IMG/VR virus record: IMGVR_UViG_2609459830_000010
DNA from: a virus
Lineage: Duplodnaviria > Heunggongvirae > Uroviricota > Caudoviricetes
DNA length: 9,648 nucleotides
Direction: 5' to 3' (one strand)
Below are positions 1 to 5,815 of this stretch, one piece after another. Positions within the stretch are counted from its first letter, which is position 1. Every line of letters starts with the position of its first letter. A program made the translations under genes and the position numbers. Under the pieces are notes generated by a model. That model was given only the letters and a program-made list of their open reading frames with translations, was not told the origin of the DNA and searched no databases.

Positions 1-297
1 TTGTCTTCTCTGGTTATGGGCTGTACGCAACATAAAACAGATATGCCCCGACAATTGGTGAAGGCATTACCACAATATCCGGCCTATGCAGCGGCAAATT
101 ATATAAAGGGACGGGTTGATGTGAAGTTTGATATTGGTGCTGATGGTACTGTCACCCGAATTGAGTTTATCCGTTCAGAGCCGCACCATCTGTTTGATGA
201 GCAGGTTGTAAAGGCGATGGCAAAATGGCGATTTGAGAAGGACAGGCCGCGTAAAGGCGTGAAGAAAACGTTTATCTTTAGTCCTTCTGCACCCTGA
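1..297 (+). CDS. Lipoprotein consisting of a TonB C-terminal domain; 5-prime partial, true start lies upstream of the window
   Basis: Reading frame is open from base 1 and stops at 295-297. Window residues 4-8 are L-V-M-G-C, a lipobox-like motif, so the signal peptide must start upstream. The remainder (ALPQYPAYAAANYIKGRVDVKFDIGADGTVTRIEFIRSEPHHLFDEQVVKAMAKWRFEK) aligns by eye with the E. coli TonB C-terminal domain as recalled from memory (QPQYPARAQALRIEGQVKVKFDV..DGRV.NVQIL.AKPANMFEREVKNAMRRWRYE). Confidence 0.7.
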   Translation: MSSLVMGCTQHKTDMPRQLVKALPQYPAYAAANYIKGRVDVKFDIGADGTVTRIEFIRSEPHHLFDEQVVKAMAKWRFEKDRPRKGVKKTFIFSPSAP

Positions 298-670: not shown

Positions 671-1036
671 ATGGCTGTGCTTCGTACGTTACCGGGCAGA
701 ATCAAAACTCTGAACACCCGGCGGGTGAATGTCCTGAAGGGTGAACAGCGTCGTGTCAGTGGCAGTGCACGTGTTTCCCTCAAGCGTCATATCTGGCTCA
801 GGGATGCCGGGCAGTGCTGTCTCTGTGGTCGTGTGGTTGACCTCTGTGACAGTGAACTCGATCACCGAATTGCACTTCAGTTCGGTGGTGGTAATGAGGA
901 GACGAATCTCTGGACGCTCTGTACCGAATGCCATCGACAAAAGTCTGCTCGTGAAGCGGCGGGTGGTATGCCTGATCCGACGTTGCCTGAGCTTCCTGAT
1001 GGCACGCTCAGGGCCGACGGAATCACTGGCCTGTGA
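671..1036 (+). CDS. HNH endonuclease, phage packaging-associated type
   Basis: ATG at 671 with GAGGA about 8 nt upstream; stop TGA 1034-1036. Contains CCLCG...LDHRIALQFGGGNEETNLWTLCTECHRQK, i.e. Cys pairs flanking a His...Asn...His core typical of HNH nucleases. Sits immediately upstream of the terminase genes, the classic HK97-like arrangement. Confidence 0.85.
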   Translation: MAVLRTLPGRIKTLNTRRVNVLKGEQRRVSGSARVSLKRHIWLRDAGQCCLCGRVVDLCDSELDHRIALQFGGGNEETNLWTLCTECHRQKSAREAAGGMPDPTLPELPDGTLRADGITGL

Positions 1037-1128
1037 CCAGACCCGGGGGGGATCATCCGGCGAAAAAAAAAAGATCGCTTTGGACACCGCGCCCCCTCTC
1101 ACGCAGAGAAAAAATTCCCGTTTCAGGG

Positions 1129-1146
1129 CAGTTAACATGTTAACTG
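1129..1146. repeat. 18-bp perfect palindrome CAGTTAACATGTTAACTG
   Basis: Read directly from the sequence; the reverse complement is identical. It contains two inverted copies of the ATGTTAAC core. Confidence 0.9.
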
Positions 1147-1202
1147 GCTGCCCGGGCATTTTTGCGGTTTTTATCTTTATTATTCAGTTTGTTGTGCGGA
1201 AA

Positions 1203-1254
1203 AAATGTTAACAGGCTTTTTCAGCAAATGTTAACCAGGCAGCAGTTAACATTT
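1203..1254. repeat. Three copies of the 10-bp motif AAATGTTAAC: two direct (1203-1212, 1226-1235) and one inverted (1245-1254, GTTAACATTT)
   Basis: Read directly from the sequence. The direct copies are 23 bp apart; the inverted copy shares GCAGTTAACAT with the left arm of the upstream palindrome. Confidence 0.85.
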
Positions 1255-1326: not shown

Positions 1327-1890
1327 GTGCTGACAACGCAAAAACGAAAATTTGCGCTGGCGCTCATGTCCGGGAAAAACAAAACAGCGTCAGCCATTGC
1401 CGCCGGTTATTCGGCGAAGACCGCCAGGGTTAAAGGCTCGCAGCTGGCAAAAGATCCGGAGGTGCTCGCGTTTATAGCCCGTAAACAGTGCGAAACGGTG
1501 GAGGTGGATGAGGTTCCTGTTTACCGGCAGAAAAAATCAGAGCAGGAGGATAAACCCCGTCGCCGTGAGGCGGCTGCAATACCACAGCCGGACGAAAACA
1601 ATCCGGAGATGCCACCGCCCGCGGTGATGTCTCATGGTATTGAATATATGGAGGATGGTCTTCCCGATCCGGTGAAAGCTATGGGGCAGATCCTGGTGGA
1701 AAACCTCAGCATTGATCCGAAACTGGCACTGGATGCGGCCTGGCGACTGGCGCAGTTCACACACCATAAAAAAGGCGATGCCGGTAAAAAATCGGCAAAA
1801 GGTGATGCCGCGAAAAAAGCGGCTAACCGTTTTGCGGTACCACCACCACCACGACTGGTGGTGAATAACGATAATGAGGGCAACGGATGA
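1327..1890 (+). CDS. terS: Terminase small subunit, P27 family
   Basis: GTG start at 1327 preceded by GGGAGGAGG; N-terminus MLTTQKRKFALALMSGKNKTASAIAAGYSAKTARVKGSQLAKDPEVLAFI matches the P27-family small-terminase N-terminal DNA-binding region as recalled. Charged, Lys-rich C-terminal tail. Stop overlaps the terL start (ATGA at 1887-1890). Confidence 0.85.
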   Translation: MLTTQKRKFALALMSGKNKTASAIAAGYSAKTARVKGSQLAKDPEVLAFIARKQCETVEVDEVPVYRQKKSEQEDKPRRREAAAIPQPDENNPEMPPPAVMSHGIEYMEDGLPDPVKAMGQILVENLSIDPKLALDAAWRLAQFTHHKKGDAGKKSAKGDAAKKAANRFAVPPPPRLVVNNDNEGNG

Positions 1891-3548
1891 TACCTGTATG
1901 GAGCACGGCCTGCCCGGACTGGGCAGAGCGCCTGAAAAAGGGGCTGTCGATTATTCCGGCTCCGATTTATCCGGACCAGGCTGCACATGCACTGGCGATT
2001 TTTAAACAACTGCGGATTGTGGATGCACCGGGTAGCCCGACATTCGGGGAGTCCTGTGCACCGTGGGTGTTTGACCTGGTGGCGGCCCTGTTTGGCTCCT
2101 ACGATGCGCAGACCGGTGTTCGCCATATCAAGGAAGTGTTTATCCTTATCCCCAAGAAAAACAGTAAGTCCACGCTGGCCGCGGGGATCATGATGACGGC
2201 GCTGTTACTGAACTGGCGGCAGGCGGCGGGCTACACCATTCTGGCCCCGACCGTGGAGGTGGCGGCTAACGCCTTCAACCCTGCCAGGGATATGGTACGA
2301 CGGGACGATGATCTGGATGACCTCTGTCAGGTGCAGACACATATCCGGACCATCACCCATCGGGTGACGGACACCACCCTGAAGGTGGTGGCAGCCGATC
2401 CGAATACGGTGTCCGGTATCAAGTCCGTGGGGACACTGATTGATGAACTGTGGCTGTTTGGCAAGCAGTACAAAGCGGAAGACATGCTACGTGAAGCCAT
2501 CGGCGGGCTTGCCTCCCGTCCGGAAGGGTTTGTGGTGTACACAACCACCCAGTCGAATGAACCGCCTGCCGGGGTGTTCAGACAGAAACTGCAGTACGCC
2601 CGGGATGTCCGTGACGGCAAAATTCATGATCCGCACTTTCTGCCGGTGATATTTGAACACCCTCCTGAAATGGTGGAAAGCGGGGCTCACCTGCAGATGG
2701 AAAACCTCGCCATGGTCAATCCGAATCTCGGTTATTCGGTGGATGAGGCCTTTCTGTACCGGGAGTACCGTAAAGCCCGGGAAGCCGGGGAAGAGACTTT
2801 CCGCGGTTTCATGTCAAAACACGCCAATGTGGAAATCGGTCTTGCCCTGCGTTCTGACCGCTGGGCGGGGGCGGATTTCTGGGAGCAGCAGGGCAGGCGC
2901 GTCAGCCTGGACGATATCCTGCAGCGCGCTGATGTGGTGACGGTGGGGATTGACGGCGGGGGCCTGGATGATCTGCTGGGAATGTACGTGACTGGCCGTG
3001 ACAGGGAAACCCGCGAATGGCTGGGCTGGGGCCATGCCTGGGTGCATGAAACCGCGGTGGTCAGACGGAAGAGTGAGGCATCCCGGTTTCAGGATTTTGT
3101 GGCCTGTGGAGACATGACGATTGTCCGTCGGGTCGGGGATGACACGGCGGAAGTGGCGGAGTATGTGCGTCGTATTCATGAGGCTGAGTTACTGGATCAT
3201 ATCGGTATTGACCCGTCAGGTGTGGGGCAGATTCTGGATTCACTGGCGGAAGCCGGGATCCCCGATGAGAGTGTGGTGGGGATAAGCCAGGGCTGGAAGC
3301 TGGGCGGGGCCATCAAAACCACCGAGCGCAAACTGGCTGAAGGGGTGCTGGTGCATGGTGATCAGCCCCTGATGGCCTGGTGTGTCGGCAATGCCCGGGT
3401 GGAGCCTAAAGGTAACGCCATTCTTATCACCAAACAGGCCAGTGGACGGGGAAAAATTGACCCGCTGATGGCGCTGTTCAATGCGGTCTCCCTGATGTCC
3501 CTTAACCCGGAACCGAAAAAGAAAGAATATGCGGTTTTTTTCATATAA
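1887..3548 (+). CDS. terL: Terminase large subunit (ATPase and nuclease)
   Basis: 553-aa ORF translationally coupled to terS. A P-loop-like segment (ILIPKKNSKSTLAAG) lies in the N-terminal half, and an acidic-residue-rich C-terminal half fits the nuclease domain. Size and position are typical of HK97-type TerL. Confidence 0.9.
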   Translation: MIPVWSTACPDWAERLKKGLSIIPAPIYPDQAAHALAIFKQLRIVDAPGSPTFGESCAPWVFDLVAALFGSYDAQTGVRHIKEVFILIPKKNSKSTLAAGIMMTALLLNWRQAAGYTILAPTVEVAANAFNPARDMVRRDDDLDDLCQVQTHIRTITHRVTDTTLKVVAADPNTVSGIKSVGTLIDELWLFGKQYKAEDMLREAIGGLASRPEGFVVYTTTQSNEPPAGVFRQKLQYARDVRDGKIHDPHFLPVIFEHPPEMVESGAHLQMENLAMVNPNLGYSVDEAFLYREYRKAREAGEETFRGFMSKHANVEIGLALRSDRWAGADFWEQQGRRVSLDDILQRADVVTVGIDGGGLDDLLGMYVTGRDRETREWLGWGHAWVHETAVVRRKSEASRFQDFVACGDMTIVRRVGDDTAEVAEYVRRIHEAELLDHIGIDPSGVGQILDSLAEAGIPDESVVGISQGWKLGGAIKTTERKLAEGVLVHGDQPLMAWCVGNARVEPKGNAILITKQASGRGKIDPLMALFNAVSLMSLNPEPKKKEYAVFFI

Positions 3549-3611: not shown

Positions 3612-5549
3612 GTGACTCTTAAACGGGCCTGTTCCCTGCTGACGGTGAAATCCTTCAGTGAGGATGAACGGGTGATCACCGGGATTGCGTCAACGCCTTC
3701 TCCGGATCGGGATGGTGACATCCTGGAGCCGGAGGGCGCGGAGTTTGGCAGTGCGATCCCGTTTCTCTGGCAGCATGACCATTCCCGCCCGGTGGGGCAG
3801 TGTACGGTGCGCCGGGTCAGCGAAGGGCTGGAAATCACGGCAACACTGGTGAAGCCCGTACCGGATATGCCGTCGCAACTGGCTGCCCGGCTGGATGAGG
3901 TCTGGGCGGCCATTAAGACCGGGCTGGTCAGGGGGCTGTCCGTGGGCTTCCGTCCCCATGAATACACCTTTCTGGACGGAGGCGGACTGCATTTTCTGCG
4001 CTGGGAACTGATGGAGGTGTCTGCCGTCACCGTGCCCGCGAATGCGGAATGCACCATCCGGACCATTAAATCTTACGACCGCCCGTTTTCTGCCGCGTCC
4101 GGCAACCGGAAACCGGTGGTGAAAATCGCATCTTCTGCCGGCGCTGCGGCACAGTCAATAACCTCTTTTCATAAGGAAAAGTCAGCAATGAATACTGGTG
4201 AACAGATTAAAAGTTTTGAAAACAAGCGTGCGGCGCTGGCAGCCTCCCTTGAGGAGATCATGAACAAAGCCGCAGAGGAAGGCCGCACACTGGATGTGGA
4301 AGAGGAAGAGCACTACGACAACACCGCAGCGGAAATCCGTCAGGTGGATGCGCACCTGAAGCGTCTGCGTGAACTGGAAACCAGTAAGGCCGCCACGGCA
4401 CAGCCGGTGAAACAGGCCGGTAACGGGAATGTGGCCACGGTGGCTTCAGCGCCGGTGATCCGTGTTGAGCAGAAACTGGAGAAGGGGATTGGTTTCGCCC
4501 GCTTTGCCAAATCACTGGCCGCGGCTAAAGGTGTCCGCTCTGAAGCCCTGGAAGTGGCCCGTCGTCAGTATCCGGATGACAGCCGTCTGCATCATGTCCT
4601 GAAATCGGCGGTGGGGGCAGGGACCACCACGGACCCGCAGTGGGCAGGCAGCCTGTCTGAATATCAGGAATATGCGCAGGACTTTATTGATTACCTGCGT
4701 CCGCAGACCATTATCGGGCGATTTGGTCAGGGCGGGATCCCTGCACTTCGTCAGGTGCCGTTCAATATCCGCGTGCATGCCCAGGTGTCCGGCGGTGCTG
4801 CCGGCTGGGTGGGTGAGGGTAAGGCCAGACCCCTGACGAAGTTTGATTTTGAATCCATCACCTTCAGTCATGCGAAAGTGTCGGCCATTGCGGTACTGAC
4901 GGAAGAATTGATCCGTTTTTCCAGTCCGGCTGCTGATGCACTGGTCCGTAATGCGCTGGCGGAAGCGGTGGTGGCGCGTCTGGACACAGACTTTGTGGAC
5001 CCGAAAAAAGCCGCAGTGGCAGATGTCTCCCCGGCGTCCATCACCCATGATGTGAAGGGCACGGCATCAACCGGTAACCCGGATGCGGATGCCGAGGCCG
5101 CGTTTGGCCAGTTTGTGGCAGCAAACCTGCAGCCCACCGGTGCGGTCTGGCTGATGTCCAGCACCAATGCCCTGGCACTGTCCATGCGTAAAAATGCGCT
5201 GGGTCAGAAGGAATACCCGGACATGACCCTGCTGGGTGGCTCCTTCCAGGGGCTGCCGGTGATTGTCTCCCAGTACGTGGGTGACCAGCTGGTGCTGGTG
5301 AATGCCCCGGATATTTATCTGGCGGATGACGGCGGTGTGGCAGTGGATATGTCCCGTGAAGCGTCACTGGAAATGCAGTCTGAGCCGACCGGCGACAGCA
5401 CCACACCGTCCCCGGTGGAGCTGGTTTCCATGTTCCAGACCGGCAGCGTGGCCATCCGTGCGGAGCGCTGGATCAACTGGCGTCGTCGCCGTACCGCGGC
5501 GGTGGCGGTGATCACCGGTGTGAACTACGGCAGTGCGTCCGGCGGCTGA
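3612..5549 (+). CDS. Prohead protease (S78/HK97-type) fused to scaffold-like linker and HK97-fold major capsid protein
   Basis: GTG at 3612 with AGGAGG 5 nt upstream. N-terminal ~190 aa (ITGIASTPSPDRDGDIL...FLWQHDHSRPVGQ...GLSVGFRPHE...LMEVSAVTVPANAEC) matches the HK97 prohead protease pattern. Next comes a charged, helical, coiled-coil-like segment (EQIKSFENKRAALAASLEEIMNKAAEEGRTLDVEEEEHYDNTAAEIRQVDAHLKRLRELE) resembling a delta/scaffold domain, then a ~400-aa capsid-like region (LRPQTIIGRFGQGG...VPFN...). All are in one frame with no stop. Confidence 0.85.
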   Translation: MTLKRACSLLTVKSFSEDERVITGIASTPSPDRDGDILEPEGAEFGSAIPFLWQHDHSRPVGQCTVRRVSEGLEITATLVKPVPDMPSQLAARLDEVWAAIKTGLVRGLSVGFRPHEYTFLDGGGLHFLRWELMEVSAVTVPANAECTIRTIKSYDRPFSAASGNRKPVVKIASSAGAAAQSITSFHKEKSAMNTGEQIKSFENKRAALAASLEEIMNKAAEEGRTLDVEEEEHYDNTAAEIRQVDAHLKRLRELETSKAATAQPVKQAGNGNVATVASAPVIRVEQKLEKGIGFARFAKSLAAAKGVRSEALEVARRQYPDDSRLHHVLKSAVGAGTTTDPQWAGSLSEYQEYAQDFIDYLRPQTIIGRFGQGGIPALRQVPFNIRVHAQVSGGAAGWVGEGKARPLTKFDFESITFSHAKVSAIAVLTEELIRFSSPAADALVRNALAEAVVARLDTDFVDPKKAAVADVSPASITHDVKGTASTGNPDADAEAAFGQFVAANLQPTGAVWLMSSTNALALSMRKNALGQKEYPDMTLLGGSFQGLPVIVSQYVGDQLVLVNAPDIYLADDGGVAVDMSREASLEMQSEPTGDSTTPSPVELVSMFQTGSVAIRAERWINWRRRRTAAVAVITGVNYGSASGG

Positions 5550-5593: not shown

Positions 5594-5815
5594 ATGGCAA
5601 AAATCCGATATCTGCAGGGCACGCATGATGCCCGGGCCGGGGATATCCGTGATGTGGCACAGCCGTGTGCGGAGGTGCTGGTTCGCCTGGGGAAGGCGGA
5701 GTACATCACAGCGCGACGTCCGGCAGGTCAGAAAAAGAAACGTGATGCGGAGCATGGCGAATGTGGAACCTTTTGCGGCGAACCCGAAAAAACCAGAAAT
5801 CAGGACGTGACGTAA
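5594..5815 (+). CDS. Hypothetical small protein (73 aa), uncertain
   Basis: ORF between the capsid stop and the portal gene, overlapping the annotated portal start by 55 nt in another frame. No convincing Shine-Dalgarno directly upstream; a purine-rich GAGGAGGGCGGGAGG lies about 25 nt upstream. The N-terminal part looks protein-like (MAKIRYLQGTHDARAGDIRDVAQPCAEVLVRLGKAEYI). Confidence 0.25.
   Translation: MAKIRYLQGTHDARAGDIRDVAQPCAEVLVRLGKAEYITARRPAGQKKKRDAEHGECGTFCGEPEKTRNQDVT

Follow-up and report, generated by a model that had tools for sequence, protein, structure and literature searches.

The window analysed here, a 9,648-nucleotide stretch of Caudoviricetes DNA (IMG/VR record IMGVR_UViG_2609459830_000010), is the packaging module (HNH endonuclease gene, cos, terS and terL) of a Shiga toxin (Stx)-type lambdoid, Pankowvirus-like Escherichia coli prophage. 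Between its HNH gene and terS, the gene of the small terminase TerS, lies an array of five GTTAAC-core motifs which, judging from comparative sequence analysis, is very probably the cosB-like recognition part of cos, i.e., a packaging signal read by TerS. On the same comparisons the array best fits the description of a multi-site, cosB-like recognition array for TerS, belonging to an HNH-type cos site. It is an ordinary type of element in a previously undescribed form: the searchable literature yielded no description of the array, the 10-nt cohesive end alone having been reported.

The original prediction, made from the letters of the window, had listed five GTTAAC cores, a perfect palindrome and a 10-mer repeated in both orientations, all placed between HNH and terS, and each of these items was confirmed (see Table 1). 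Specifically, the five cores lie within 1131-1250 (starting at 1131, 1139, 1207, 1230 and 1245), CAGTTAACATGTTAACTG is a perfect 18-bp palindrome, and AAATGTTAAC is present as two direct copies, whose starts are 23 bp apart, and as one inverted copy, which reads GTTAACATTT; the location between the two genes agrees with their Pfam assignments. The last two copies of AAATGTTAAC also make up a 12-nt perfect inverted repeat, GCAAATGTTAAC and GTTAACATTTGC (1224-1235 and 1245-1256, with a gap of 9 nt). A sixth GTTAAC is found in the window at 8569 only. The expected number of copies was 1.03 (mean over dinucleotide-preserving shuffles of the window) and none of 200 such shuffles reached six, while two or more copies arose in 0.2% of 200,000 mononucleotide shuffles of 1037-1326, with a maximum of 4. 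The motif can be written as a half-site with the consensus (A/C)ATGTTAAC, and within the window the 8-mer ATGTTAAC and its complement occur exclusively at the five places of the array. Counted from the left genome end, as defined below, the half-sites lie at +34 (minus strand), +40, +108 and +131 (all plus) and +148 (minus), the centre of the palindrome being exactly 40 nt from that end. The T-rich spacer separating sites 2 and 3 has a length kept to within 1 bp among lineages, with conserved T runs and a conserved ATTCA core, and is possibly a bend or wrapping segment; its A-tracts are irregularly spaced (as judged by eye only), so we make no claim of curvature.

Table 1 Features of the window and location of the satellite island carrying a copy of the array.
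Feature	Position	Strand	Details
TonB_C-domain open reading frame (ORF)	1-297	+	Pfam E = 3.9e-15
HNH endonuclease gene	671-1036	+	Pfam HNH E = 7.9e-07; PHROG HNH endonuclease; same annotation in relatives
G7 run	1045-1051		conserved part of cos upstream of the cut
cos core GGACACCGCGCCCCCT	1082-1097		1088-1097 (CGCGCCCCCT) = inferred 10-nt 3' cohesive end; top-strand cut 1097/1098
Left-end block CTCACGCAGAGAAAAAATTCCCGTT	1098-1122		includes A6 tract 1109-1114
Sites 1 and 2, palindrome	1129-1146		overlapping inverted half-sites ATGTTAAC: 1131-1138 (-) and 1137-1144 (+)
24-aa ORF MLTGCPGIFAVFIFIIQFVVRKKC	1137-1211	+	starts at the ancestral terS ATG; ends at a TAA inside site 3
T-rich spacer between sites 2 and 3	1147-1202		73% A+T over 1158-1206
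Site 3, AAATGTTAAC	1203-1212	+	
Site 4, AAATGTTAAC	1226-1235	+	left arm of the 12-nt inverted repeat
GGCAGC between sites 4 and 5	1238-1243		invariant in 6/6 aligned lineages
Site 5, AAATGTTAAC	1245-1254	-	right arm of the inverted repeat
terS, small terminase	1327-1890	+	Pfam Terminase_2; GTG start; Shine-Dalgarno GGGAGGAGG at 1316-1324
terL, large terminase	1887-3548	+	Pfam TerL_ATPase and TerL_nuclease
Prohead protease/major capsid fusion	3612-5549		from ORF and Pfam analysis
Portal	5761-7125		from ORF and Pfam analysis
Head-tail connector	8180-8506		from ORF and Pfam analysis
Satellite island locus	L266:1440-1680 and L268		NZ_CP086544.1, about 2,992,500-3,001,900

The position of the cut relative to the array follows from a close relative. 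A tblastn search with TerS found the induced Stx1 Escherichia phage Lys8385Vzw, whose TerS is 94% identical to that of the window, whose intergenic sequence is nearly identical and whose terS begins at record base 230. This record starts with CTCACGCAGAG (CTCACGCAGAGAAAAAATTCCCG...), which corresponds to the window from 1098 onward, and it ends in ...GGACACCGCCCCCCCT. Lys8385Vzw has been assigned by PhageTerm to the cos class with 3' cohesive ends, with the cos sequence CGCCCCCCCT at the genome end (PMC7946995), and window positions 1088-1097 differ from that cos by one substitution. By homology we infer that the left end of the packaged chromosome is window position 1098, which would place the start of the array 31 bp inside this end, between the cut and terS. 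The suggestion in the original prediction that cos lies between HNH and terS is thus supported by virion termini of this relative equivalent to window 1097/1098. Around the cut, the cos core shows no variation among 6 diverged lineages and is also kept in relatives across Enterobacterales, a run of G7-8 stands at an equal distance from the cut in all phage and satellite relatives, and the left-end block is nearly invariant and common to all motif classes described below; this block probably serves the cutting machinery or non-specific TerS contacts.

Looking for the motif at the equivalent position of related prophages, as the original prediction had proposed, we found the array kept in sequence, position and orientation in diverged lineages. 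The informative lineages were L164 (TerS 64% identical), the E. coli ES5 prophage L274 and two satellite copies, L266 and L270. In each of these four, the half-site 8-mers are identical to those of the window at 38/38 positions, against 86% (L274), 68% (L164), 70% (L266) and 68% (L270) identity over the rest of 1098-1256; for the window against L164, the contrast between GTTAAC cores and remaining positions gave a Fisher p of 1e-5. Offsets and orientations are equal to within 1-2 bp in five lineages, L164 having an extra site from a 10-bp duplication which moves its last site by about 10 bp, and conservation collapses past about 1256. The flanks of the palindrome have been altered symmetrically, from CAG..CTG to GGTG..CACC in L164 or to CCAG..CTGG in L274, and the flank of site 3 has changed in step with that of site 2.

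The protein proposed to read the half-sites is TerS, through its N-terminal domain. TerS matches Pfam Terminase_2 (PF03592) over residues 2-57 with 36.1 bits (cut-off 26.1), and residues 1-55 are predicted by AlphaFold2 to form a four-helix helix-turn-helix domain (pLDDT 92-96). The top Foldseek hits of this domain were structures of the SF6 TerS DNA-binding domain, 4zc3 and 2cmp (for 4zc3, target TM 0.84 and root-mean-square deviation 1.6 Å). The following residues 56-110 are predicted to be disordered (pLDDT < 50) and vary in length and sequence among relatives, one of which (P0032) does without the central part.

Two lineages in which the motif itself differs connect the array to this domain. 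In L273, an E. coli 2012C-4221 prophage, the geometry is unchanged and all five half-sites read ATGTTTAT or ATGTTTAC (i.e., ATGTTTAY) and not ATGTTAAC. The related lineage L165 is known from a truncated contig with two visible half-sites, both of the ATGTTTAY type; a search for a full-length exact match to it returned none and led to L273, which shows the motif in full. The TerS proteins of L273 and L165 share the substitutions A25E, T32S and V35C, carried by 0/3 TerS of GTTAAC lineages, and these positions, which lie in or beside the predicted recognition helix, fall at the end of helix 19-25 and in or beside helix 33-41. A change made in the same way at five sites is hard to explain unless one reader recognises all of them. 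The conserved geometry and this concerted change are both consistent with the earlier proposal that the arrayed motifs are TerS sites beside the cut.

A further motif class points in the same direction. Proteins with the N-terminus M(A)LTxKKKxFA[SD]A..KG (P0055, P0064, P0097 and P0099) have the same cos core upstream, and in this TerS class AAGTTACAC always replaces the GTTAAC site at about +33. The AAGTTACAC class is hosted by a Hafnia phage (with HNH, TerS, TerL and capsid genes) and by satellite-like islands of E. coli and Salmonella; in one E. coli locus (L169) there are seven AAGTTACAC-type sites with a T-rich spacer after the first, a layout like that of the window. The N-domain of the window TerS is 69-78% identical to proteins of the GTTAAC class versus 47-58% to those of the AAGTTACAC class, and C-domain identities have the opposite pattern. 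TerS looks modular, its N-terminal DNA-binding domain and its C-terminal helical part recombining independently of each other, and, as far as these alignments indicate, it is the N-domain that the motif class follows.

Further support for TerS sites, again from sequence comparison, comes from satellites which lack terS and keep both cos core and array. A search of complete E. coli genomes found, in strain Ec-042-T0, a diverged copy (78% identity) with the cos core and five GTTAAC sites at the very end of a 9.5-kb island located between cspD and clpS, the array end being next to clpS. The island carries genes for an integrase, a helix-turn-helix regulator, an Icd-like protein, a RepA helicase, a protease/capsid fusion and a small phrog_1561 protein. 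By tblastn it has no homologues of TerS, TerL, HNH or portal, nothing terS-like follows the array, and its capsid fusion has no BLAST similarity to that of the window. This version of cos was present in about 50 of 5426 complete E. coli genomes, and a second variant is found next to yejO. That an element dependent on a helper and devoid of terS has kept the array argues for a cis-acting packaging signal and against a control element of terS expression.

Other islands carry the cut site together with a terminase of their own. Those at L166/L167:1380-3075, L175-L184 and L171/L172 (E. coli and Salmonella) have a primase (D5_N/DUF5906) or a single-stranded DNA-binding protein and small ORFs, with the same cos core, two AAAAGTTACAC repeats and an own TerS homologue (P0064/P0099); they also encode a protein of about 300 aa with weak capsid similarity and have no adjoining TerL. 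They are probably satellites that use the helper's cut site with a packaging specificity of their own. The seven-site E. coli locus (L169:1790-2030), where the TerS homologue P0055 stands beside a Y1 transposase, an AlpA gene and an autotransporter, looks like the remnant of a satellite. That satellites either copy the array or replace it suggests another instance of packaging piracy.

The origin of the first site could be traced in a set of compact relatives, comprising 20 prophages from other Enterobacterales genera (TerS 33-49% identical) and Salmonella phage FSL SP-016. In all of them some 100 bp 5' of terS are nearly invariant at the nucleotide level (...GGGGGGG..GATCGC..GGACACCGCGCCCCCTCTCACGCACAGAAAAAATTCCCCTCTGGAGGGTGTAAAC-ATGTTAACAG), and terS starts at the central ATG of GT(A/T)AAC-ATG-TTAAC, 39-40 nt from the inferred end. 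ATGTTAACAG is invariant in 29/29 distinct compact sequences; codons 2 and 3 (TTA ACA) are constant there even at their synonymous positions, and many later codons vary, while terS starts outside a site encode Met-Leu-Thr as GTGCTGAC, ATGCTGAC or ATGTTGAC. The constraint on the first site thus acts on the DNA and not on the codons. The distance from the end to terS is 39 nt in compact relatives versus 229 nt in the window, whose lineage has about 190 bp of extra DNA (roughly 1147-1326) bearing sites 3 to 5. The first site is the ancestral one, overlapping the terS start and standing alone in most relatives. No record of a compact relative was found to begin at cos (SP-016, a partial genome, and phi330 were found, and neither starts there).

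Three further observations concern the cos region. Two GATC (Dam) sites (1051-1054 and 1073-1076) lie upstream of the cut, a CGATCGC copy being kept in many distant relatives. In PPompW prophages an ISEc20 element (IS110 family) abuts the cos region inside the G run (equivalent to window 1047; L272:746-2204); these prophages lack the lysis genes and HNH that would otherwise lie between the Q/tRNA region and cos, and are therefore probably defective for cutting and release. Finally, in Acinetobacter guerrae (L122), whose TerS is only 28% identical, CTCACTTATAAGAAAAAATC...ATGTTAAAGG stands upstream of terS, which means that the left-end block, and perhaps the site type, may reach beyond Enterobacterales.

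Several points weigh against reading the array as a multi-site TerS signal. The role of TerS as the reader is inferred from comparison, and recognition could also involve the HNH protein, TerL or a host protein. The cut position derives from one PhageTerm analysis of one relative and not of this prophage. All five cores are kept in 80/80 close IMG/VR relatives (49 distinct variants), among which overall variation is so low that the invariance of the sites is weakly significant (p = 0.04-0.15). The covariation of ATGTTTAY with TerS substitutions comes from two related lineages and so probably represents a single evolutionary event. In most relatives packaging uses just one palindromic site, meaning that the three distal sites are not universally required. 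The inverted repeats, moreover, could also form hairpins in late mRNA.

Among the competing explanations, the least unlikely is that a component other than TerS, such as the HNH protein, TerL or a host DNA-bending protein, reads the sites; we nonetheless consider it unlikely. The HNH gene adjoins the array, HNH is required for cutting of HK97 cos and the T-rich spacer suggests bending; however, satellites with their own TerS, for which the 1.5-2.5 kb of fetched flank contained no called HNH or TerL, possess a motif class of their own, the motif correlates with substitutions in the TerS N-domain, and no IHF (integration host factor) consensus is present. The last of these was assessed as a candidate in its own right and rejected, the consensus WATCAANNNNTTR with at most one mismatch being absent from both strands of 1098-1330.

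It is very unlikely that the inverted repeats owe their conservation to RNA or DNA hairpins, be it as a terminator after HNH or as an mRNA structure tuning terS translation. As RNA, 1224-1256 folds at -15.7 kcal/mol (z = -2.9) and 1126-1153 at -16.3 kcal/mol with T runs after it, the 22-bp palindrome of L164 is directly followed by TTTT, and conservation of a stem would also yield symmetric flank changes. Against this, there is no canonical terminator, and hairpins leave unexplained that sites 2, 3 and 4 are direct repeats of one 10-mer and that five sites of one sequence changed together in L273; in addition, the loop GGCAGC is invariant, the array is kept in satellites with no terS following it, and the first 'stem' consists of just 5-6 A/U-rich pairs in compact relatives. 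An intrinsic terminator was discarded as a candidate, with zero terminator-like sites in 900-1500 and the T run separated from the stem.

We regard as highly improbable the alternative offered in the original prediction, namely that the array is an operator at which a regulator (the neighbouring ribbon-helix-helix (RHH)-like DUF3950 protein or another late regulator) controls terS and the head genes. Arrays of palindromic and direct repeats are, when 5' of a gene, typical of operators, a small DUF3950 gene (probably what the prediction called 'RHH') lies nearby on the minus strand at about 429-629, and there is a weak promoter-like match on the minus strand inside the array. The proposal nevertheless found no support, since the array persists where both neighbouring gene and terS are absent: it is kept at the end of the satellite island with neither a terS downstream nor a DUF3950 gene, and no homologue of ORF 448-744, the largest of the small ORFs beside HNH, adjoins the satellite array. 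The distance of the array is, moreover, fixed to the cohesive end and not to terS (39 vs 229 nt), and the motif class tracks the TerS N-domain. A regulator common to the phage and satellite arrays was sought and rejected, ORF 448-744 and the 93-aa neighbour in the satellite being unrelated.

Equally hard to credit is that the motifs have no function and are what recombination left of duplicated terS 5' ends (a view prompted by ATGTTAAC encoding Met-Leu-Thr, the conserved TerS N-terminus, by the exact coincidence of the first site with the terS start of compact relatives, by the present start GTGCTGACA being three transitions from ATGTTAACA, and by the resemblance of about 1147 to 1326 to DNA inserted relative to these relatives), for relics would be expected to decay, yet the 8-mers are 38/38 identical despite flanks that have diverged to 62-70% identity, their offsets are conserved, all five changed in concert in L273 and satellites keep them. 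Duplication of a terS start may explain the origin of the sites, not their maintenance. The 24-aa ORF that begins within the palindrome was tried as a small gene, toxin or membrane peptide and dropped: the L164 differences are nearly all non-synonymous, only 4 codons are left in L266 and L270, and its product is hydrophobic because the strand is T-rich.

If the array is the TerS-read part of cos, packaging could proceed as follows. TerL and HNH would cut the bottom strand at about 1087/1088 and the top strand at about 1097/1098, giving 10-nt 3' cohesive ends. The DNA to the right of the cut, bearing terS, would be the end that enters the capsid first, and it is there that the five half-sites lie, in the order of an inverted pair (+34/+40), a T-rich spacer of about 60 bp, two direct sites (+108/+131) and one inverted site (+148). 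Oligomeric TerS, with flexible N-terminal helix-turn-helix domains, could bind several half-sites at once, the spacer presumably being bent or wrapped in such a multi-site complex. TerS binding would then mark phage DNA for cutting by TerL and HNH at initiation and would stop the motor at the next cos.

The closest functional parallel is lambda cosB, in which the sites R3-I1-R2-R1, bound by gpNu1, lie next to cosN. As there, the array (1129-1256) stands between the cohesive-end cut (1097/1098, by homology) and terS (1327), it contains several copies of one short site in both orientations (- + + + - here) with a bendable segment between them, and it is proposed to anchor TerS so that TerL would cut the neighbouring site. 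Unlike lambda, however, the window has a TerS of the Terminase_2 family with an SF6-like helix-turn-helix (versus the gpNu1-type winged helix), half-sites of 8-10 bp (versus 16-bp R elements) and no counterpart of the IHF site found between the lambda repeats; overhangs are 12-nt and 5' in lambda, and 10-nt and 3', with an HNH partner, in Lys8385Vzw. In other words, the array would work like lambda cosB but without the defining features of that family (TerS fold, IHF site and type of end).

HK97, which was not among the tblastn hits of TerS in the phage collection, shares with the window the order HNH-cos-terS-terL and the type of TerL (PF03354/PF20441), and in both an A-tract lies near the cut; the probable 10-nt 3' overhang of the window (as reported for Lys8385Vzw) and its proposed TerS recognition a short way past the cut, towards terS, also have their counterparts in HK97. 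The HK97 TerS site is located at +15..+29, where TerS requires an A-tract, and terS starts at +50; the A6 tract of the window can be likened to it by analogy only. The two differ in that HK97 has one 15-bp site read by a nonamer via its channel and an arginine clamp, whereas the window has five half-sites of helix-turn-helix type spread over about 125 bp from +34, and a TerS of a different family.

In fold and Pfam family, the N-terminal DNA-binding domain of TerS matches that of G1P of SPP1/SF6. G1P contacts repeated boxes in bent DNA on both sides of the cut, which by analogy suggests a multi-site wrapping mode. SPP1 and SF6, however, package by the headful (pac) mechanism with an imprecise cut made once per series, unlike the window with its cos and defined cohesive ends.

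Among satellites, comparable cases are known from phage-inducible chromosomal islands and Staphylococcus aureus pathogenicity islands (SaPIs), i.e., EcCICFT073 with its Rpp protein and cos SaPIs with the helper cos. In the Rpp system satellites retain cosN and alter or copy the cosB part (PMC6739421), which resembles the satellites described here: L266 and L270 copy the helper's cos and array, and L166 and L171 keep the cos core with another recognition motif, a parallel to altered cosB specificity. Unlike EcCICFT073, the change of specificity would here be brought about by the satellite's own TerS homologue and not by an Rpp adaptor.

Going further, we tentatively suggest, while holding it somewhat less probable than not to be right in full, that the array and the TerS helix-turn-helix together form a naturally re-programmable code of packaging specificity on a shared cut site, with ATGTTAAC, ATGTTTAY and AAGTTACAC as mutually exclusive versions. 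Were this so, the expansion from one to five to seven sites in E. coli phages would reflect an arms race between helpers and satellites over packaging, and the satellites would have taken two strategies, either mimicking the helper array exactly while lacking terS, or combining a motif of their own with their own TerS. The full packaging signal, beyond the 10-nt end, defines the DNA that these phages and satellites can mobilise and shows how cos-based transfer might be built or blocked. The mode of DNA recognition by small terminases is still under debate (wrapping, threading or interdigitation); the short, defined half-sites, their fixed geometry and natural variants with few recognition-helix substitutions make TerS recognition directly testable in this system.

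The assignment of the prophage rests on positions 600-2000 of the window, where identity to lambdoid phages and prophages of the long-tailed, Stx-converting kind (YYZ-2008, BP-4795, 1717, 2851 and many Stx1a/Stx2c prophages) is 94-97%, YYZ-2008 being placed in the genus Pankowvirus by RefSeq. Of 5426 complete E. coli genomes, 1283 have the cos region of the window, in up to seven copies each, and its hosts are long-tailed Stx1/Stx2c-type prophages of enterohaemorrhagic E. coli. The HNH gene lies directly 5' of cos, in the position of gp74 in HK97-type packaging modules. Farther 5', in the late region, the ORF with a TonB C-terminal domain (labelled 'protein TonB' in Lys8385Vzw) is unusual phage cargo. 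The gene order over 5761-8183 is also unusual, the portal coming after the protease/capsid fusion, and past the portal a 353-aa ORF (7122-8183) with no Pfam hit matches PHROG families named 'portal protein'.

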